A DNA stretch of 64,000 nucleotides from a virus. Positions 661-50,880 of this stretch are shown one piece after another. The stretch's first letter is position 1, and each line of letters opens with the position of its first letter. The DNA lies in the UHGV virus genome UHGV-1373362. One strand, 5' to 3'. Position numbers and translations under genes: made by a program. The notes beneath the pieces are model-generated. The model worked only from the letters and a program-made list of their open reading frames with translations, had not been told where the DNA came from and searched no databases.

Positions 661-3600
661 TTAGTATTTAAAAATTGATTTGGAACCGAATCCTATGCTA
701 GTAACCATATCTGGTGCATCTCCATCTTTCTTTTTAACCCATGTACCAATTTTGCTTACTACATTATTAGCATTGACCAGGACTTCGTTATAAAAACCAC
801 TTGGAATTTCTCCTTGCATATTCATAAGCTTATATGCTGTGGTAAATCTTGAATTAACATTATATCCGAGATTTACACTCCTTTTAACCCAATCTACAAG
901 GACACTACTTGTGGTAGTAGATGTATCCTTAACCTGATAGGTATCATCAGTGTTCTTTTTAAGATTCATGCTTCCATCAGGATTAGCAGTTGTGCCATCA
1001 TGAACCCCAATGTAAATCTGTCCTCTATTTATACTACCTAAATCTGCTTTAGACGAAGTGTAATAGGAATATGCACTAGTATAACAATTTAGTAATGTAG
1101 AGTCATTATCAAATGTAATTGTATCACCAAAGTAAACTGTAACAGGTAGGTCAGAAGGTTTATGTATATAGAACAATGGAAGATAATTCTTAAAATTAGA
1201 TGTAGGACTTATACTATTAATAGCAGAAACCCATCTACTCATGTGTGTTTCTAAGGAATCATTGCTACCATCCATATAGATATTAACATCTACATTAGTT
1301 CCAGCTTTGTCTACACTTAGTGTTAGTTCACTTACGGTATCATATGAATTATGGTATACAAAATTAGAGCTATCTGGTCCAACATAATTTGTGTTCTTGG
1401 AACCCCTCTTTACAACTAACATCTGACTCAAGAAGCAGTTTAACATCCTATCTACTCTAATCAGTGTTGTAGTACTAGATGGGTTTAATTTCTCATTCTT
1501 CCTAGATCCTAAATTAACTGGGCGATGCCATCCATTAGAATCCTTCCATGTAGCTAGAAGAAAATTATCTTCATTATCAATTTCGGATTTATCTCTAAAC
1601 CAGGCACCTGTACTATATTCAGCCCCTTCGATTCTATAACTAGCGTGATCCTCGTCACATCCTCCAAATATCCCAATAGTACCATTACCCATATTAGCCA
1701 AACATACATTTAATCCATCATCATCGTGACCTGCCCCACCGTTTACTCCCTTATATTCGTCTCCAGTGGTATGTTCTACGTTAGGTGGTATTTTAGCATT
1801 ATAGCATATGTAATCTTCATCTCCAACTACACAAGTTAAGGTATCATTAGTGTTTCTAAATGAATATAATTTGTCTCTCTCAGTAACAGACATATTAGAT
1901 TCGTATACAGGCATTAGTTTTTCTACATCCTTTGTTTCGTTCTTAACTGGGCCTGCAACAGCTAAGATATTTCTAGTAGTACTAACCTGACCCTTCAATT
2001 CCTCTTTATCGTAGGTGAAAGCTTTAGACACTCTAGAAGATACTGTACTTATTTCGGATTTGATGGTAGTTTCATTACTAAACGCCATACCACTATCATC
2101 AAATTTGCTACTCTTAATAGTAGGTGTAATCCCAAAGAAGTTCTTCATTAGGCTAGGATCTGGAGTTCCTGCATATAGTTTCTCATCAAAATCATATTCA
2201 GCAGCAGGTCTGATAGTTACATCATATACTCCTGTTTTCTGGCTATTGTATCTATAAGATGCAACATTAGTATTAAGGCTAGGTACTTCTTTTATATAAT
2301 CAGAAGGAGTAACATAGTTCTTGTTAGTAAAACTAGTTGCATCATGAACTTTAATAGCCAACGTCTCATTGTTTTTCTTTACATTAGCATTAATTTCATG
2401 TTTAACTGTCAATTGGATCTTCTCTCTGTTAGAACCACTTGGCAATGCGCTAAAGTCAGGAGTTTCTCCAAATACGTCGTTGAAATACCCCCCAGTATAC
2501 ACTAATTTATACCCTATATCCTTTTTAGTAGAGCCTACATATCTGTCAATCCTAACTATGTAGACCCAATTCTTTCTAATGGTTTTACTATCAAACGGAA
2601 TTATCTCCTCGAAACTTCCATTATAATACTCCTTAGAGACAGTGTATTTGTACTCACCTCCTAAAGTTTGTACCCTTGAAGCATCAGCTGAATTAGTTAC
2701 ACTTATAAATGTAAACTCTATCTTAGTGATATCTGAGTTTTCATTCATATTATAGTAGTCATACCCCCATCCAATTTTGAGATATGTGTCTGTAACATAG
2801 AATCTCCATTCACTTAGTGATTCAGCATTGGCCCTAATAGCATCAAAATCAATTGTTCCAATTTTGGCCATTCTCTCAAGAACCCCATAAGGGCAAGCTG
2901 GCATAATTTTGTATGTCTGTTTGCCAGTTCTACCACTTTTAGTAATGGATGACCTAACAACAGAATCAGTAGATTCTAAGAGTCCTATTTCACTGGAATT
3001 CTTTTCAGTAGTACCGGTATAAACCCCAGTAGTTTCTCCAATAAATTTAACACTAATAAGGTTAGAATCATCACATGAATACTTCCTTATAAGATTAAAT
3101 GTATCAAAAGTCTTTAGTTCAATAACTAGTATTAAAGCCCCAGAAGATTTAGCGCTGAATACTTGAACTATTTCTTTTGATCTAATTATATCAGCCATCT
3201 CCTCATTACTGCCTTCATAAATCCATAAGCCATTTGAATATAACTTTAGATTATTCTCATCTATATAATCAATATTACCACTGCTGTTTATAACCCCGAG
3301 TCTAAGTTTTACAACCCCTTTATTAATAGCCTCTCTTATCTCTGAAGCTATAAAGTCTGTAACTATTACAAACCTATCCCCTGGATGAAATATTTTAACC
3401 TCTTCTGAGTTATTAACTTGAAATAGTTTCTGTTTAAAATATTCTAACTTTATAAATGGAATTGACCCTCTCATTTCAACAAAATTAGAAAAGTCAAAAT
3501 GAATAGGGGCTACATTTAAGTCTTCACCTTCATATAATTGTTGGGGAGATGGAAACGAACCTATTTGTCCTTTACCAGTAATAGGATTGTGAGCTACTAC

Positions 3601-42216: not shown

Positions 42217-42402
42217 TTAATTATTAATTAGGAACTCATATATACCATCTATCTTATCAAAGTATTGACAGGTCTGAATAAAGGATATTTGGTGTAATAT
42301 CATACTGTAATCATCTATATATCCTTTATTCAGTCTTTTGAGAAATTTATTAAAATTCTCAATTACCTTTAGCTTTAGATTACCTATTGCATCCACAGCC
42401 AC
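42217..42402 (-). CDS. Small hypothetical protein, 61 aa.
   Basis: A short ORF filling a gap. It overlaps the upstream gene by 23 nt. Confidence 0.3.
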   Translation of the reverse strand: MAVDAIGNLKLKVIENFNKFLKRLNKGYIDDYSMILHQISFIQTCQYFDKIDGIYEFLINN

Positions 42403-43171: not shown

Positions 43172-43998
43172 TACTCAATTACAGTTACATATATTCCTAC
43201 CAAATCTTTTAGTGGGCTATAAACAGCTTGCCCCGAGTCTCTAGAGCACATGTATAACACCCCTTCCTGAGTATAATACTTACCAAGCTCTAGTTCCATA
43301 TTATTATTATATGGGATTGGATCTTCTCTAGTTCCAGCATGGGATTCACTAATTTCTTCATATAAAGCTGCTGTAGAAATACCTGGAGCTTGGTTTTCTA
43401 ATACCAAACTAATGTCCTGCTTTACCTTGTATAAGCATCCTTTATATGTTACTTTGTCTCCACTAGTTAGAGATCCTCCTATACAGCTCACCCATGTTGG
43501 ATACAAGGACTTACATGCCAAGGATTGTTCATCCGTAAGTGTAGCTGTTGTAACTAAAACTTTTAATAGATTAGCTATATCGTTTTGGGTTGGAAGTAAT
43601 TCTCCATTCATTTCAGGATCTACAATTCCAAAATCTTTTTTAACCTCAGATTTTATTATAGATACTAATCCCACGTACTCACGGTATTCAGAGCATATAT
43701 TAGAATCTTCTATAACCCCCATCTGATATGAATTATATTTATTCATTAATGCTAACTCTTCCTCAGCAGTTATATATTCTCGTATAATAGCTTGGATACA
43801 GGTATTACATTCAGGAACACCTCTTAGATGCACTTGTATATAGTTCCACCTAGTCTCCTCAGTTGATTCCCCAGATTCTATATCACTTGTTGTAACTACT
43901 CTGGATTTTATGTCATAATTATAGTAATATGTACCATTACCTAGCTTCTCTATTGTATTAGGCTGTACATTCATTTCTATTCTTCTTGGTTCTAACAT
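43171..43998 (-). CDS. Hypothetical protein, 275 aa.
   Basis: An ORF whose start overlaps the RT 3' end by 41 nt. An internal ATG at 43974 (residues MNVQPN) is an alternative start. Confidence 0.5.
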   Translation of the reverse strand: MLEPRRIEMNVQPNTIEKLGNGTYYYNYDIKSRVVTTSDIESGESTEETRWNYIQVHLRGVPECNTCIQAIIREYITAEEELALMNKYNSYQMGVIEDSNICSEYREYVGLVSIIKSEVKKDFGIVDPEMNGELLPTQNDIANLLKVLVTTATLTDEQSLACKSLYPTWVSCIGGSLTSGDKVTYKGCLYKVKQDISLVLENQAPGISTAALYEEISESHAGTREDPIPYNNNMELELGKYYTQEGVLYMCSRDSGQAVYSPLKDLVGIYVTVIE

Positions 43999-45193
43999 AC
44001 GGTTGTATTTTAAAATTCACAGGTAAAGAGTATCTACTAAGAGAGTATAGTAACTCTGAATTACGACTCTCGAAATAGTATGACTTCTTATTGTAAACAA
44101 AGTTAATTCTAAAACACTTACTATAATTAACCACATCCACAACGTGTACATACTTGTTGTAAAATCTAGAAATTGTAGTCTTCTTTCCATCCCAATTAGA
44201 GAAGTGCAATCCTGTCTCCTTTTGGATTTTACATAGTAAATTCTTAGAGTTACAGAACTTTAACCATCCAAAGTAAGACTGCATTCTCTTACGTAATTCG
44301 TCTTTACTTATTAATTTCCTTTTATATTTGTTTATTAATTTAAACAATCTAATTTTGATTGATTTTCTTAATAACACGTGGGTATGGTAGAATCTATATC
44401 CTACAAAGTCTATTCCCCTGCTTTCTACAGGGAATATTTGATAGTTTTGTTTCAACTTTAAATTTAAGACCTCTCTTAGATATATCTTTATCGCTATTAA
44501 GACATTTCTTAAGAAATTCTTATCACTGCTGAGAATTACAATATCATCAGCACACCTGAAATAGAATTTACATTTCAGTTCTTCCTTGACCCAATGATCA
44601 AAGTAGGCAAGGTATAGATTGGCAAAGAACTGAGATAAATAGTTACCAATAGGAACCCCATCCGCAGAATAAATAATCCCAATCAGTAAAACTAATAAAC
44701 TATTATCCTTAACCTTACGCTTAATTATTTCACATAATATATCGTGGTCAATAGAGGGATAAAACTTTTTTACATCTATTTTCAGACAATAAAACGTTTC
44801 ATCCGGATATTTTCTCAAGGCAGCCCTCAAATCATGGGCTACATTATGAATACCTCTGTCCTTAATGCAGGAATAGGTCTGCTTAATAAATATTTTAGTC
44901 CAGATGGATTCCATTATATTCATGATAGCATGATGTGTTATTCGGTCTGGATAATATGGTAGCCTAAATATTAGTCTTTCTTTAGGTTCATATATTGTGA
45001 ACGTACTATATTCCGAAGTTTCATAAACCAAGTCCCTTAGTTGTTCAGAAAGTTTTTGGTTCTCCCTCTCTTTATTTCTATCATGCTTTAAAATTCCCCA
45101 TCTAACTGATTTGTGCTTTCTAGCCTTATTATCTGCTTTCTCAATGTTCTCTATATCATACACCTGTTCATGTAAATATCCTATCCTTTTCAA
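43958..45193 (-). CDS. DGR-type reverse transcriptase.
   Basis: The RT motifs are present: YCLKIDVKKFYPSIDH for motif 2, GVPIGNYLSQFFANLYL for motif 4 (carrying the DGR-specific SQ in place of the group-II intron QG), FRCADDIVIL for the xADD catalytic box, and GIDFVGYRF in the thumb. The gene lies 142 nt downstream of a template repeat whose paired variable repeat shows adenine-specific mismatches. The start codon is a TTG at 45193. Confidence 0.9.
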   Translation of the reverse strand: MKRIGYLHEQVYDIENIEKADNKARKHKSVRWGILKHDRNKERENQKLSEQLRDLVYETSEYSTFTIYEPKERLIFRLPYYPDRITHHAIMNIMESIWTKIFIKQTYSCIKDRGIHNVAHDLRAALRKYPDETFYCLKIDVKKFYPSIDHDILCEIIKRKVKDNSLLVLLIGIIYSADGVPIGNYLSQFFANLYLAYFDHWVKEELKCKFYFRCADDIVILSSDKNFLRNVLIAIKIYLREVLNLKLKQNYQIFPVESRGIDFVGYRFYHTHVLLRKSIKIRLFKLINKYKRKLISKDELRKRMQSYFGWLKFCNSKNLLCKIQKETGLHFSNWDGKKTTISRFYNKYVHVVDVVNYSKCFRINFVYNKKSYYFESRNSELLYSLSRYSLPVNFKIQPYVRTKKNRNECTA

Positions 45194-45284
45194 AGTCTTA
45201 TATATTTAATTTGGAAGCTTTCGAGATTTAACCTACTAACACCCGTTTATCCTAAATACTACTATATTTTTTGCCAAGAGGCAG

Positions 45285-45296
45285 GGATACTGTTTA
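45285..45296. repeat. Left arm of a 12-bp perfect inverted repeat that brackets the DGR template repeat.
   Basis: GGATACTGTTTA at 45285-45296 is the reverse complement of TAAACAGTATCC at 45476-45487. Wobble pairs extend the stem to about 14 bp. Confidence 0.6.
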
Positions 45297-45335
45297 GACT
45301 GAATAAGTAAAAACTATCAAAATGAAATATATAAC

Positions 45336-45439
45336 AAACCTACATTAGCATTAGAATTGCTAACTCCATTATTAGAATTGAAGTAGCTAAGACTGGCATT
45401 ACTACCATTATTAGCGTTGCTACTAACGATGAGTGTTTT
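45336..45439 (-). repeat. DGR template repeat (TR), 104 bp, lying between the target gene and the RT.
   Basis: It aligns with 45543-45646 at an offset of 207. Of 104 positions, 74 are identical, and all 30 mismatches fall where the TR has T on the plus strand, which is A on the minus coding strand. The TR is rich in AAT/AAC (Asn) codons in the VR frame. Confidence 0.9.
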
Positions 45440-45475
45440 GTAGTAATCATCCTTGTCCTACAACTAATGTAAAAG

Positions 45476-45487
45476 TAAACAGTATCC
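45476..45487. repeat. Right arm of the 12-bp inverted repeat that brackets the TR.
   Basis: It is the reverse complement of 45285-45296. Confidence 0.6.
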
Positions 45488-45520: not shown

Positions 45521-47581
45521 TTATATTTTATTTATCGTTCTGAAACCCACATGAGCAGTAGAAAGGCCAACCCCAGTACTAGAATAGAAGCAGCCAAGAC
45601 CGGCAAGACCACCATCATAAGCGCCGCCACCAACGATGAGCGTCCTCAATGCTGTGCTTGATGCATTACAGTAGTGGTAGTCACACATATATGTCGTAGT
45701 AGAGCCGCCCACCTTAGATGGAATGATCTCCCCTGTTTCACCCAGGTCAAAATCAGTAGTATAACCATCTGAAGCAATCTCGATCCCAGTTACAGACATT
45801 TTACCTTTAGCTACATTATCATCGCCAAACGCTGATGTGTCAATCGTAGTGTATACATTACTAGGCTGATTTGCAGTTGTTCTTTCTATAATTATTCCAT
45901 CTAAATTAGTCCAGATGTCTCCAAATGGATTATCAAATCCTCTCCATCTTGGAACTTTAAATGTCTTAGTAGCTACTGTTGTGGATTCGTTTACCACAGT
46001 TTCAGGAATTACTAAATCCTTAACACCAGTAAAGTTACCAAACTCATTGCAATATCCACATGGAGTTATTGGGTAATTCCCATTATAACTTGTCCAGATA
46101 TCCCAATTCCATGTAGTAACACCATCTCCTAAACCACCTTGATGATAACCTTCAGCAGTTAATTCAGCGTTATATGCAGCTTGAGAGTTAAGTGTTGCAT
46201 ATTCAATAACCCAAGCCCAGTAGAATATCCATTTGTAATACTCATAGCATAATAGTTCTGAGCCTGCATTAGCAGCATAAGTTCTCATGTTAGCTCTTGT
46301 AGTGTTGGTTCTAGGTTTTCCCAGATCACTTCTAAAGGCATCTGTACTCAGGTACGTATCGTTAGCAGTTCTATTACCTCCGCCTCTGAATTGAGCAGTA
46401 GTATTAACTACAGAAACAGCCTTATTGCCAGTCTGATTTACTGTACATCTATAGGCGTCCACTAACATCTCTGGAATTTCAATCCACGTATTATCTATTT
46501 TGACGGTAGACATTCGTACCCATTTCTTTACTCCACTAATTCCAGACTTACCATAAAACTTAGGTATGTGTACTCTTATTGAACCATCAGTTCCGTCAAG
46601 TACTGAATCCTCACCTGTAATCTTCTTACTCCAATCATTAGGATTTAAGTAGTAATTAATCATTGAACCATTAGCCACGCAACCCCTATATTGAGACTGC
46701 ACTGGTAGGGATTTATGTAATAGTGTGTTTCCAATTCTAGTTAATGTGGGGTCTGCCACAGTAGTATCCCATTCTACACCATAAGAATAAATATCTTCAT
46801 ATCCAGTATAGCTAGGAGTATCCTCCCACTTAGCAGTTCCATCACCGTTATTTACTAATATCTGACCTAAAGTACCTCCTGCTGGAATGTGCTTATTACC
46901 AGCTGTAGTGGGATGTATATAGTTGTTAGCTGACTCCTCAATAGAATCCAATTTAACTTTATCTAGCATTGATAACACACCTGCGGCTTCAGTAGTAGCA
47001 GCAGGTAATGAAGTAGTTAAGTTAGGAAATTGACTACTATAATTCCTTTCCAATGTTATAGTAACTGTACCTTGTAATGGATTGTTTCTAATAGCATTTA
47101 CACCAGTTATGCCCTCTAATTTGGTTTTATGCTCTGAAGTAAAGTCATTAGTACTCAGCTCCTTTCCTTCAATTTTATCAACTTTACCTGCTAAAGAGGA
47201 TTTAATATCTGTGTCATCGTAATTCTCTAAAGAATCTAATTTAATCTTTTCCTCACTAGTTACAAATTTATGAGTATCATCTTCTACTATGATAGAGGCA
47301 GGGTGAGTATCTGGATGGGTGTAATTGTTAGCCCCCTCAGCTATGCCATCCAATTTAGATTTAAGTTCAGTAGTAAAATTCTCATCACTAAGTACTTTAC
47401 TACCTTCTTTATCAACTTTACCTGCTAGGGCATTTGTTAATTCCTCTTGAGTAATTACATCACCCTTTATGTCTGATACAGTAGTAGTTTTATTTGTCCC
47501 ATTCTGAACTATGGGAATCAGCTCGTCACCATTAAGTGATTCTGCCAGTGGCATTTGGGAAATTTTTACATCCGTAACCAT
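45521..47581 (-). CDS. DGR target protein: a fibre-like receptor-binding protein of 686 aa with a C-terminal variable region.
   Basis: The ORF has an ATG start. Its N-terminal roughly 40 aa are paralogous to the 125-aa protein at 48278-48655. It carries two copies of the LAGKVDKxxGKxLSxxxFTxExKxKLxGI repeat shared with the 946-aa fibre. The VR sits in its last 35 codons. Confidence 0.85.
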   Translation of the reverse strand: MVTDVKISQMPLAESLNGDELIPIVQNGTNKTTTVSDIKGDVITQEELTNALAGKVDKEGSKVLSDENFTTELKSKLDGIAEGANNYTHPDTHPASIIVEDDTHKFVTSEEKIKLDSLENYDDTDIKSSLAGKVDKIEGKELSTNDFTSEHKTKLEGITGVNAIRNNPLQGTVTITLERNYSSQFPNLTTSLPAATTEAAGVLSMLDKVKLDSIEESANNYIHPTTAGNKHIPAGGTLGQILVNNGDGTAKWEDTPSYTGYEDIYSYGVEWDTTVADPTLTRIGNTLLHKSLPVQSQYRGCVANGSMINYYLNPNDWSKKITGEDSVLDGTDGSIRVHIPKFYGKSGISGVKKWVRMSTVKIDNTWIEIPEMLVDAYRCTVNQTGNKAVSVVNTTAQFRGGGNRTANDTYLSTDAFRSDLGKPRTNTTRANMRTYAANAGSELLCYEYYKWIFYWAWVIEYATLNSQAAYNAELTAEGYHQGGLGDGVTTWNWDIWTSYNGNYPITPCGYCNEFGNFTGVKDLVIPETVVNESTTVATKTFKVPRWRGFDNPFGDIWTNLDGIIIERTTANQPSNVYTTIDTSAFGDDNVAKGKMSVTGIEIASDGYTTDFDLGETGEIIPSKVGGSTTTYMCDYHYCNASSTALRTLIVGGGAYDGGLAGLGCFYSSTGVGLSTAHVGFRTINKI
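45543..45646 (-). repeat. DGR variable repeat (VR), covering the last 35 or so codons of the target gene.
   Basis: It is the counterpart of the TR. All differences map to TR adenines. It encodes the C-terminal residues TLIVGGGAYDGGLAGLGCFYSSTGVGLSTAHVGF and ends about 20 nt before the stop codon. Confidence 0.9.
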
Positions 47582-48281: not shown

Positions 48282-48655
48282 GTCGTCGGGTTTAACTGTG
48301 TTTCTAAGGCTGTAACTCTATCGGCTAATGCATTGTATGTTTCAAGAGTCACATAATTAGTTAAATCTACGGTAATCTGTTTATTCCCCAAGAACTCCCA
48401 GCCTTGACCTGTTAACCATATATATTCATCATATACATCATTAGCCCTAGAACTCTCGTTAGCAACTAAATATATCTTATTAACTATACCCTGTGCTGGT
48501 AAAGTTTGTACTATTTCAGTTCCTCCATTAGATAAATTACTAAGTAAATCCGAGATAGTAATAACCTTATTAACTCCATCCTGAATAATAGGTATCAACT
48601 CTGTGCCAGCAAAGGTAGTTACTACATCCATTTCAGATATTCGTTTACCAGCCAT
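48278..48655 (-). CDS. Small fibre-associated protein, 125 aa, that shares its N-terminal module with the DGR target.
   Basis: Its N-terminus MAGKRISEMDVVTTFAGTELIPIIQDGVNKVITISDLLS aligns with MVTDVKISQMPLAESLNGDELIPIVQNGTNKTTTVSDIKG of 45521-47581. Confidence 0.55.
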   Translation of the reverse strand: MAGKRISEMDVVTTFAGTELIPIIQDGVNKVITISDLLSNLSNGGTEIVQTLPAQGIVNKIYLVANESSRANDVYDEYIWLTGQGWEFLGNKQITVDLTNYVTLETYNALADRVTALETQLNPTT

Positions 48656-50880
48656 TACATATTTTTAACTTCATCATTCATATTATTACCATCGAACAAT
48701 TGAGCATATTCAATATCCGTTCTCTTAGTATCGTTATCTGATTGAGTAGATTTAAAATCACGTTCTGTTTTAGCATTATACCAATTAATTTCAGCTTCGT
48801 TCTGTGCCTTCTCTCTTTCAATCTCAATCTTAGCTTCATTGAGGCTTTCAATTTTACTTTGAGCCTGTTGAAGCTGCTGCTGTAGTTGTTGGTTCTGCTG
48901 CTGTAGTTGCTCAAGTTGCTGTTGCATCTGTCCCATTTCATTAGTCTCCTTCTTCCTTTTAGCAAACGCTTTATGGACTTTGGATTTAAGTTCAGTAAGA
49001 CTTCTAGCAGCTAAAGCATCCACGATAGTGTCAGGTTCAAGTTGTCCACTCTTGATGAATTCTACAATAATCTGTTGAACATTTTGCATTTCCTTCATAA
49101 TCTTAGTACTAGGAACAATATGAATATCATAATCAGTATGTGTAAAATGTTCTGGTAATGCTGTGAACACTCTTTGCAATTTGTCTCCAAGTATAAGAGT
49201 TCCGGTTTTGCCTTTCTTCCATACTATCTTGGCAATATTTAAACAGTCACTCAATATATCAATAGATAGGGTATCCATCTGTTGATAGAATGGCTTAGTA
49301 ATAGTATAGGAGTTTCTAGCCCCAGCTTCTACATTACTAACAGCATCTTTCTGCTGAATACCATTAAGTCTTTCTCTAAATACCCCTGTTACAGAAGATG
49401 TTTGATCTTCTATTCTTTGTAATGCTAAGTCAAATGCTTGTATAGTTTGTACCTTGATAGTATCATCAAATCCGGCAAAGGAGGTATTGTTGTTAAAAGC
49501 TCTTCCCTCCTGGCTAGTATCAACTAAGGCCATACCCGTCTTTTTGAATGCCAGGAATTTTTGTAATCTTTCAGTTAAATCATCTCCTAATATAGTTGGA
49601 AGCATTGATATGTCTACCCAGTCCCCAGTAGATCCACTGTTAGCTAATATATTATCCCTAAAGTAGGTTACTAAATCATACTTATCCTGCAAGTGGGCAC
49701 ATTGTAAAACTAATGATTGTGGCACATTGTCTCTATTAGTGAGATACACTCCATTAACTGATAATCCACACTTAGTGGGTGCATCCTTGGTTCTAATTAC
49801 ATTCTTTGACTTACCTGTAAGAACATATATAGATTGACCTATCCTAACTCCCTCATACCTATTCTCTACATAATCCTCACCCTCTTTGTCAATATCTATC
49901 CACTCTACTTCAAACACTGGAAGAAGTTTGAAATTGAAGGATTCATAAGTATCAGCTGGAAATCCAGGTGTGATACCTTTACCTGCATCCAGTCCAGCAC
50001 CCTCTCCTGTATCAATGGGCCTACATCCCACTTGATTCTCCATAGCCCTAATATACATGTAGGAGCTATCATTGTAGTGCTCATACATATCCTCTAATTC
50101 GGTTTTGCCCTCATCACTAAGATTCTTACCGTACTCGTTAAGAATTTGATGTTTAGTCATCCATCTCCTATATACTACTCTGTAGCTATCTTTTACGTAT
50201 TGTGATTCAGGATTTCTATCAACAAATGTATTTAAGGGACTGAGTACATCAATGGTTATATTAGTCCCTTCAGGTGAGGGTTTAACCCTGTAATATGAAC
50301 TTCCTGTAACTAGTAGGTCTAATAAAAGAACCCTCAACTTATTAGCCAGATCAGTATTCCTAGATTGAATAACATATTCTAGAACATCCTGGGCTGCTCT
50401 CTCATAGTCACTAATAAAGTTCTCATTTATATCTTCAATTAACCGATCTATTTCTATTTCTATAGCGGCATCACTGACATTACCATTACCTATAAATGCT
50501 AGTATTTGATTATTGAGGTGCTTTTGTAAAAAAGAAAATACCTGTTGATTTATTTCTAATTCTTTTTGTCTAGTGATCTTACTAACAGTTTCCTTATCTT
50601 TGCAAGATACTTTTGGAATGATGGGAATGTCTAGGTATTCACCAATCAAGGCATCAATATGTTTCTTTATAAGAGGTGTAAACTCCATAGAAGTGGGATT
50701 TCCAATACCAAAGTTCTCTTCTAAGTAGCGGTACTGTTCAGCATCTCTCTTACAATTATAATAGTTGTATGCCTTCTGAAGTTTCCATTTATTAAAGACT
50801 AATTCATTTATAGCCTTATCTATCTTCTCTATCAAATACTCATCACTTCTCTTCTTTACATCCATCTTTAAAGTCTTCAT
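48655..50880 (-). CDS. Portal protein, putative.
   Basis: A 741-aa ORF immediately downstream of TerL, with a size typical of crAss-like portals. The C-terminus is a Q-rich coiled coil, and the ATG start was verified. Confidence 0.6.
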   Translation of the reverse strand: MKTLKMDVKKRSDEYLIEKIDKAINELVFNKWKLQKAYNYYNCKRDAEQYRYLEENFGIGNPTSMEFTPLIKKHIDALIGEYLDIPIIPKVSCKDKETVSKITRQKELEINQQVFSFLQKHLNNQILAFIGNGNVSDAAIEIEIDRLIEDINENFISDYERAAQDVLEYVIQSRNTDLANKLRVLLLDLLVTGSSYYRVKPSPEGTNITIDVLSPLNTFVDRNPESQYVKDSYRVVYRRWMTKHQILNEYGKNLSDEGKTELEDMYEHYNDSSYMYIRAMENQVGCRPIDTGEGAGLDAGKGITPGFPADTYESFNFKLLPVFEVEWIDIDKEGEDYVENRYEGVRIGQSIYVLTGKSKNVIRTKDAPTKCGLSVNGVYLTNRDNVPQSLVLQCAHLQDKYDLVTYFRDNILANSGSTGDWVDISMLPTILGDDLTERLQKFLAFKKTGMALVDTSQEGRAFNNNTSFAGFDDTIKVQTIQAFDLALQRIEDQTSSVTGVFRERLNGIQQKDAVSNVEAGARNSYTITKPFYQQMDTLSIDILSDCLNIAKIVWKKGKTGTLILGDKLQRVFTALPEHFTHTDYDIHIVPSTKIMKEMQNVQQIIVEFIKSGQLEPDTIVDALAARSLTELKSKVHKAFAKRKKETNEMGQMQQQLEQLQQQNQQLQQQLQQAQSKIESLNEAKIEIEREKAQNEAEINWYNAKTERDFKSTQSDNDTKRTDIEYAQLFDGNNMNDEVKNM

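Follow-up and report, generated by a model that had tools for sequence, protein, structure and literature searches.

A long-range RNA stem kept by compensatory mutations encloses the DGR template repeat of a gut phage without detected Avd

The closest described counterpart of the element reported here comes from the DGR of a Bordetella phage, for which the bRT-Avd-RNA complex has been solved by cryo-EM (Handa et al., bioRxiv 10.1101/2023.10.23.563531; published in Nature 638:1122, 2025). In that complex, avd 369-379, which lies upstream of the template repeat (TR), pairs with spacer positions 59-70 to form a duplex named cPRT Stop. The spacer strand then runs on into a short stem-loop (Sp71-78) followed by three unpaired bases, of which A80 and A81 contact the terminal G:C pairs of the duplex through A-minor interactions (Handa et al., 10.1101/2023.10.23.563531). 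Bordetella cDNAs end just before this duplex, and no synthesis occurs once the avd strand is deleted. Activity was not rescued by compensatory swaps of the duplex, indicating that base pairing alone is not its whole function. Sp47-56 serves as the primer strand; its partner is TR117-129, and it is located upstream of the stop strand at a distance of 2 nt (all in Handa et al., 10.1101/2023.10.23.563531). The same study predicted cPRT Stop in 207 of 278 Avd-containing DGRs, using single-sequence folds and excluding Avd-less DGRs, and a paper from 2026 already mentions in its background that reverse transcription is terminated by a motif located at the 3' end of avd.

Two further reports are relevant to DGRs of the kind analysed here. 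The DGRs of crAss phages have been reported to lack avd (PMC7290462). In addition, among the RNA motifs presented in 2017, RT-17 was given no specific function, only RT-10 being tied to a DGR (Weinberg et al. 2017, PMC5737381).

The DGR cassette of UHGV-1373362 and its 12-bp stem

We analysed a stretch of 64,000 nucleotides of the virus genome UHGV-1373362, referred to here as the window. It carries on its minus strand a DGR in the order target gene with VR, TR and reverse transcriptase (RT), with no avd detected. The target gene is an ORF of 686 aa (45521..47581) with the VR at its 3' end (45543-45646), and the VR forms a repeat pair with the 104-nt TR (45336..45439). The RT gene (43958..45193; 411 aa, TTG start at 45193) matches Pfam RVT_1 with E = 5.9e-15, and the N-terminus of its product is conserved in all relatives. 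The locus shows the features by which a DGR is recognised, namely TR/VR mismatches that fall only on adenines of the TR (25 of 25), a VR in the 3' end of the target gene and an adjoining RT gene. The VR and the TR are separated by 103 nt, a gap in which the ORF list of the window has no entry, and the TR and the RT by a spacer of 142 nt. None of the seven neighbouring ORFs had a Pfam match to Avd, and no Avd-binding stem-loop was found at the 5' end of the spacer, whose positions 1-39 are U-rich and variable.

The RT region shares 64-70% DNA identity with crAss-like phages and, judged by its sequence, the phage of UHGV-1373362 is a member of a poorly described crAss-related lineage. A portal-like protein encoded at 48655-50880 is 24-26% identical to the portals of classified Crassvirales and 67% identical to that of MT835470, a human-gut phage contig of 117 kb without annotation. 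Within the 10-kb neighbourhood, the longest local inverted repeat pairs 42251-42288 with 42319-42356 (38 nt, 74% complementary, 30-nt loop) and is found at the junction of two minus-strand ORFs.

An earlier note on this DNA had described a perfect 12-bp inverted repeat on both sides of the TR, and its description of the repeat proved exact. One arm, GGATACTGTTTA, occupies 45285-45296, at a distance of 39 nt from the TR, and the other, TAAACAGTATCC, which is its exact reverse complement, occupies 45476-45487 on the other side of the TR, at a distance of 36 nt. Between them is a loop of 179 nt, in line with the roughly 180 nt that had been proposed. In the minus-strand RNA, the 5' strand of the stem, GGAUACUGUUUA (45476..45487), is intergenic, past the stop codon of the target gene and 36 nt upstream of the TR, and the 3' strand, UAAACAGUAUCC (45285..45296), occupies spacer positions 40-51. 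Folding of the minus-strand transcript 45520-45190 with RNAfold, the check that had been suggested, gave an MFE and a centroid structure that each contain the stem with precisely its 12 pairs, at pair probabilities of 0.72-0.97, so that the arms do pair around the entire TR in the DGR-sense RNA. Pairing of the arms elsewhere would have spoken against the stem; in the fold, other partners are not preferred. The note also expected wobble pairs to extend the stem to about 14 bp. This extension does not exist, as the stem is bounded by an A.C mismatch outside and a C.C mismatch inside and is therefore 12 bp long.

As a bare inverted repeat, the 12-mer is not above chance: the window contains 3 perfect 12-mer inverted repeats with loops of 50-400 nt, compared with 3.85 +/- 2.6 in dinucleotide shuffles. 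What is unusual about it is its placement around the TR, since a perfect 12-mer inverted repeat brackets a 104-nt element within 80 nt at only 0.19% of window positions. The folding energy of the whole transcript is unremarkable against shuffles (z = -0.64), and energy alone is thus no evidence for the stem; in a nested-only model, forcing the 5' arm to be single-stranded costs only 2.8 kcal/mol. Given the chance-level repeat count and this z-score, the single sequence could not decide the matter, and the comparative evidence was decisive.

Covariation of the stem in close and distant relatives

Close relatives were collected by an RT scan of viral contigs, which gave 80 loci with RTs 70-85% identical, and 52 non-redundant TR regions were aligned with MAFFT without structural guidance (alignment A1). 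The stem is retained across these 52 relatives, the weakest cases being L078 and L020. In the 41 correctly aligned rows every stem pair is intact. Four stem positions are altered on both sides (for example UA:21/CG:19), and the alignment contains 30 doubly changed cells, a number that none of 500 shuffles equalled. Overall, 91.7% of the stem cells of A1 are paired; sliding the partner lowers this to 30-53%. Eleven rows seem to lack the stem, and all belong to the L069 subgroup, in which MAFFT misplaced the 5' arm; the true arms of this subgroup, GGAUAUUACUU/AAGUAAUAUCC, pair without a mismatch. A search that used no alignment found 13 different arm pairs, none with fewer than 10 of the 12 pairs; shuffled arms reach at least 11 pairs in 0.5% of trials. 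The co-variation that the earlier note had proposed to look for in related phages is thus found, in the form of compensatory changes. The stem was absent from the output of RNAalifold for the alignment of the whole family. We attribute this to the misplaced 5' arm of the 11 L069-group members and to another, invariant pairing (X:Y, described below), which excludes the stem in a model free of pseudoknots.

The two weakest cases have their own peculiarities. L078 is an apparent recombinant, with a 5' arm of the L005 type and a spacer of the L076 type, which leaves 10 of the 12 stem pairs. The contig of L020 begins (positions 1-700) with GC-rich DNA unlike the phage, which stands in place of the sequence upstream of the TR together with the 5' arm. 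This is probably a chimera produced in assembly; a genuine replacement would amount to a natural deletion of the 5' arm. Other members of the family vary in parts of the cassette outside the stem. The TR of L009 has an internal deletion of about 42 nt that are present in all other family members, and in L042, a single IMG/VR contig, the 3' half of the spacer (hairpin, A-run and second stem-loop) is tandemly duplicated upstream of the RT, at about 2900-3000. A separate observation concerns the RT frames of L082, L084-L088, L091 and the L069 group, which carry 3-10 in-frame TAG codons and no other stops, as would be expected if these crAss-like phages recode TAG stop codons; several of these RTs are annotated in truncated form in GenBank.

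The same architecture extends to much more distant phages. Twelve crAss-like phages in GenBank, which represent 12 further genera in Intestiviridae and in six subfamilies of Suoliviridae, were examined. All 12 carry a TG-VR-TR-RT cassette with A-only mismatches, and in all 12 the region upstream of the TR forms a duplex with the spacer. The stem sequences are unrelated, as in GGUUAAAUAUC/GAUAUUUAACC of cr130_1 and GGUUAUAUUUCUU/GGGAAGUAUAACC of LMMB, and the 3' strand always adjoins a hairpin that is followed by A's. Across the 12 genera, the arms pair with their own partners at a mean of -13.5 kcal/mol versus -7.6 kcal/mol with cross partners (0 of 5000 permutations).

Cellular relatives were found by scanning an RT alignment against one genome per prokaryotic species, which yielded 80 loci, mostly from Bacteroidota, with RTs 48-62% identical. 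A TR/VR pair is located upstream of the RT in 77 of these 80, and the module of stem, hairpin and A-run is present in the great majority, so that about 60 DGRs of Bacteroidota carry it. In a set of 61 non-redundant loci that includes the cellular Bacteroidota, own partners pair at -16.5 kcal/mol versus -9.9 kcal/mol for cross partners, again with 0 of 5000 permutations. When 44 compact cellular loci were aligned with MAFFT, the 12 stem pairs were 94.2% paired (37-53% in slid registers), and 104 cells carried double changes. The two pairs nearest the hairpin were G:C in 44/44 and 42/44 loci. G.U pairs are frequent in the stem, both in family A1 and in the 44 cellular loci. On the other strand these would be C.A mismatches, and the structure therefore belongs to the DGR-sense RNA. 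Taken together, the inverted repeat is a real long-range RNA stem kept by compensatory mutations.

In eight of the cellular loci (L100, L101, L125, L161 and L111, L118, L137, L147), VR and TR are offset by 545-700 nt with an ORF of 111-131 aa between them; the other cellular relatives have no room for a gene between the two repeats. These ORFs fall into two unrelated families, and searches for Avd or Pfam matches found none. They may encode uncharacterised DGR accessory proteins.

The conserved module continues downstream of the stem. One base (C) after the 3' strand, the window has a short hairpin, UGCC-UCUU-GGCA (45272..45283, minus strand), as the counterpart of Bordetella Sp71-78. It is invariant within the family of the window, and across genera its stem covaries (GCC/GGC, ACC/GGU, GGC/GCC, GUC/GAC). 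The hairpin is followed by an unpaired A-run, AAAAA (45267..45271, minus strand), which provides candidate A-minor adenosines corresponding to Bordetella Sp A80/A81 and is present in 56-61 of the 61 loci. Over these 61 loci the consensus of the junction reads ACC-UU-GCC-NNNN-GGC-AAAAA. Five loci (L096, L107, L112, L130 and L150) have in place of the hairpin an insertion of 40-60 nt that is closed by a UUGCC...GGCAA stem and followed by the A-run, so the hairpin tolerates large expansion. Further towards the RT, RNAalifold pairs a second spacer stem-loop with the conserved sequence UAGUAG...CGAAA (45213..45244, minus strand), within the region resembling RT-17/RT-18, and a possible role for it would be that of an RT-binding element.

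Function of the stem and priming of cDNA synthesis

We consider it probable, by analogy with the Bordetella phage, that the helix is the counterpart of cPRT Stop, docking on the RT, aiding self-primed synthesis and ending the cDNA upstream of the TR. In the minus-strand DGR transcript, the sequence upstream of the TR pairs with spacer positions 40-51, and the spacer strand leads straight into the 4-bp hairpin and the A-run, with the two hairpin-adjoining pairs conserved as G:C. This module of stem, hairpin and A-run would dock on the reverse transcriptase and could help to place the template for self-primed cDNA synthesis, and the helix would act as the physical barrier at which synthesis ends, upstream of the TR. 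The earlier note was right to link the flanking arms to the structured RNA that self-primed cDNA synthesis needs in Bordetella. We infer the RT binding, the A-minor contacts, the requirement for cDNA synthesis and the termination from that system, whose RT is only distantly related to the one studied here, and the function suggested for the stem rests on this comparison. The analogy does not support the idea that both arms could mark the boundaries of the mutagenised RNA. Only the 5' strand would mark the end of the cDNA; the 3' strand lies inside the spacer, 39 nt past the TR, and would not bound the copied segment.

The distance between the 5' strand and the TR bears on how strictly the barrier would operate. 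It amounts to 36 nt in the window and to 59 nt in L089 and L092, and in most relatives it is 0-10 nt, with a median of about 6 nt in the cellular ones. A strict stop at the TR boundary thus fits less well in this phage. The wider distances favour a different reading, in which the helix is a scaffold and not a terminator: it would join the ends of the template region, organise the spacer for RT binding or priming, or protect the RNA, and the cDNA would end elsewhere, for example by run-off or at a structure nearer the TR. The Bordetella experiments lend it some weight as well, since deletion of the avd strand abolishes synthesis and does not lengthen the cDNA, and since the swaps fail, which shows a role beyond that of a simple roadblock. 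However, the short distances of most relatives are those expected of a boundary element, and Bordetella cDNAs stop just before the duplex. We regard a scaffold without termination as unlikely.

Much less probable still is that the stem is a regulatory RNA switch, controlling RT translation or read-through from the target gene outside the reverse-transcription machinery. One feature speaks for it: the end of the spacer, which overlaps the RT start codon, can pair with the 3' end of the TR (the X:Y pairing) in competition with the stem. Yet the minus strand has no terminator-like site between the target gene and the RT, the module of stem, hairpin and A-run matches a structurally solved RT-bound element, and the module and the RT are conserved together in hosts and gene contexts that differ widely.

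There remains the idea that the repeat acts as DNA, in a cruciform, in recombination or as a target-recognition site, or that it is a chance inverted repeat. Guo and colleagues are said to have described, in 2011, that DGRs use a DNA hairpin or cruciform adjoining the VR. Despite that precedent and the chance frequency of perfect 12-mers in this AT-rich window (3 against 3.85 expected), we give a DNA-level or chance origin almost no weight, as it is effectively refuted by compensatory changes in more than 100 loci and by the G.U pairs that make the helix strand-specific. The arms, moreover, are separated by 179 nt and surround the TR instead of the VR.

If the helix is the cPRT Stop counterpart that we favour, the question arises of where cDNA synthesis would be primed. 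The gap between the TR and the 3' stop strand is 39 nt in the window. In the cellular relatives its median is 13-14 nt and it is often below 10 nt, which leaves little room for a primer strand of the Bordetella type or for an Avd-binding stem-loop. A nested candidate of that type can be drawn tentatively in the window, where AGUCUA (45295..45300, minus strand), straddling the start of the 3' strand, can pair with UAGGUU (45337-45342) at the 3' end of the TR. On A1 this pairing is 78% paired, broken in two subgroups and has a z-score of about 0, and in the cellular loci nested pairings of the Bordetella type have a mean of -2.3 kcal/mol. Such a candidate is no better than chance, except in L086; in the family of the window it does not outdo shuffles, and it is convincing only in cr115_1.

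A second tentative pairing, seen as inverted repeat I21 and by RNAalifold, has a different geometry. Its candidate template strand, X, is AGGUU..UUAUAUAUUU (45325..45341, minus strand), at and just past the 3' end of the TR. Its candidate primer strand, Y, is AAAUAUAUAA-GACUU (45193..45207, minus strand), which pairs with X and ends on the first base of the RT start codon. The pairing recurs at the same two positions in other genera with other sequences, such as CUGAAAUAC/GUAUUUCAG and UGAAUAUUCUU/AAGAAUAUUUA. In the 44 cellular loci it is 78.6% paired, compared with 27-45% when slid, with 16 doubly changed cells. Permutation tests of own versus cross partners are positive on mixed sets and not significant on the cellular-only set (p about 0.13), and the per-locus z-scores are weak (mean -1.15; window -1.2). 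Within the family of the window X:Y is invariant, so that covariation cannot be assessed there. The geometry fits extension from the 3' end of Y, and in nested folds X:Y competes topologically with the stem. The order in the RNA is 5' stop strand, X, 3' stop strand, Y, and the two helices therefore cross, unlike the nested layout of Bordetella. It is tempting to speculate that in Avd-less DGRs of the RT-17 type, those of this phage, of other crAss-like phages and of many Bacteroidota, the primer is Y, at the 3' end of the spacer, pairing with X and interlocking with the stop duplex as a pseudoknot, and that priming is coupled to occlusion of RT translation. We put this forward as a possibility that is still rather doubtful.

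Another short complementarity was seen near the stem. GGAC at 45455-45458, which precedes the TR by 15 nt, and GUCU at 45296-45299, just 5' of the 3' arm, could pair in a second helix, A2, which RNAduplex suggested in five subgroups. Longer analogous pairings occur in subgroups, for example UCAGACAA/UUGUCUGA in L077 and UUGGCAAA/UUUGCUAA in L069. In the MAFFT register, helix A2 is 55% paired compared with 23-53% when slid, and it remains tentative and unsupported.

Comparison with known systems

The clamp around the TR was thought by the earlier note not to be a described hallmark. In fact, Handa et al. had solved this very element as cPRT Stop; the mechanism is not new, and the clamp is the version of it that this gut phage carries. 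The likeness is evident in the order of the parts. At the published coordinates, BPP-1 has AGGGCAGGCUG / CGGUUCUGUCCU, then GC-UUCG-GC, then GAA, with the spacer strand ending in ...GUCCU, and the window correspondingly has UAAACAGUAUCC, C, UGCC-UCUU-GGCA and AAAAA. The BPP-1 pairs between avd and the spacer were read from those coordinates; the generic RNAduplex pipeline missed them in this GC-rich sequence. In both systems a duplex of about 11-13 bp joins sequence upstream of the TR with the downstream spacer and loops out the TR, and the spacer strand leads directly into a short stem-loop and unpaired adenosines, with G:C pairs next to the hairpin. The two nevertheless differ in several respects. 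The upstream strand is intergenic in the window, whereas in Bordetella it is the 3' end of avd, and neither an avd gene nor an Avd-binding stem-loop in the spacer was detected in the DGR studied here. Its hairpin has 4 bp and a UCUU loop, compared with 2 bp and UUCG in Bordetella. The 5' strand is 36 nt away from the TR, a distance that amounts to a few nt in Bordetella. Nor is there a clear primer strand 2 nt upstream of the stop strand.

The second comparison is with Rfam. Over the window no family reached its gathering score, with sub-threshold matches over 45193-45288. RT-17 (RF03020) matched this segment with 27.3 bits (E = 0.003), compared with a gathering score of 40.4. Other crAss loci score 30-39 bits, and 6 of 20 cellular relatives pass, at 41.8-51.1 bits. 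The window spacer aligns with the model over a segment that begins in the last bases of the 3' strand, takes in the CC-UU-GCC hairpin, the AAAA and the UAGUAG...CGAA stem-loop, and reaches the RT start. On this alignment the window spacer is a divergent RT-17 motif, which lies below the threshold and is not a curated member. The model differs in that it begins with 'gaCC-UU-GCC', which is the end of the stop strand, and omits the 5' partner beyond the TR. Phage_DGR (RF03022, formerly RT-10), the spacer RNA of BPP-1, did not match the window at E up to 10; the BPP-1 control scored 104.7 bits with this model. The two RNAs are alike in lying between TR and RT, and overall in a cis-acting role as a DGR spacer.

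Our results add to the described mechanism in several ways. They extend cPRT Stop, the one DGR RNA element whose structure has been solved, to a lineage without detected Avd that is outside the published survey, the crAss-like phages and the Bacteroidota, both very abundant in the human gut. They also provide support by covariation in more than 100 loci, where the published survey consisted of fold predictions from single sequences. Moreover, the orphan motif RT-17 gains a probable function, and its model can now be seen to lack a long-range partner across the TR. In annotation, the combination of stem, hairpin and A-run can serve as a hallmark by which the limits of the functional DGR RNA are recognised, and efforts to reconstitute or engineer a DGR free of Avd can start from this module.

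Finally, retrons offer a more distant comparison. The a1/a2 inverted repeats of the retron msr-msd form a long-range stem that flanks the templated region of the RT's own non-coding RNA, next to the site of 2'-OH priming. The retron stem serves to place the priming guanosine, and copying of the msd by the RT proceeds toward it. By contrast, we propose that the stem described here terminates synthesis. Moreover, what is copied here is a repeat that codes for protein, and the enzyme is an RT of the DGR clade.
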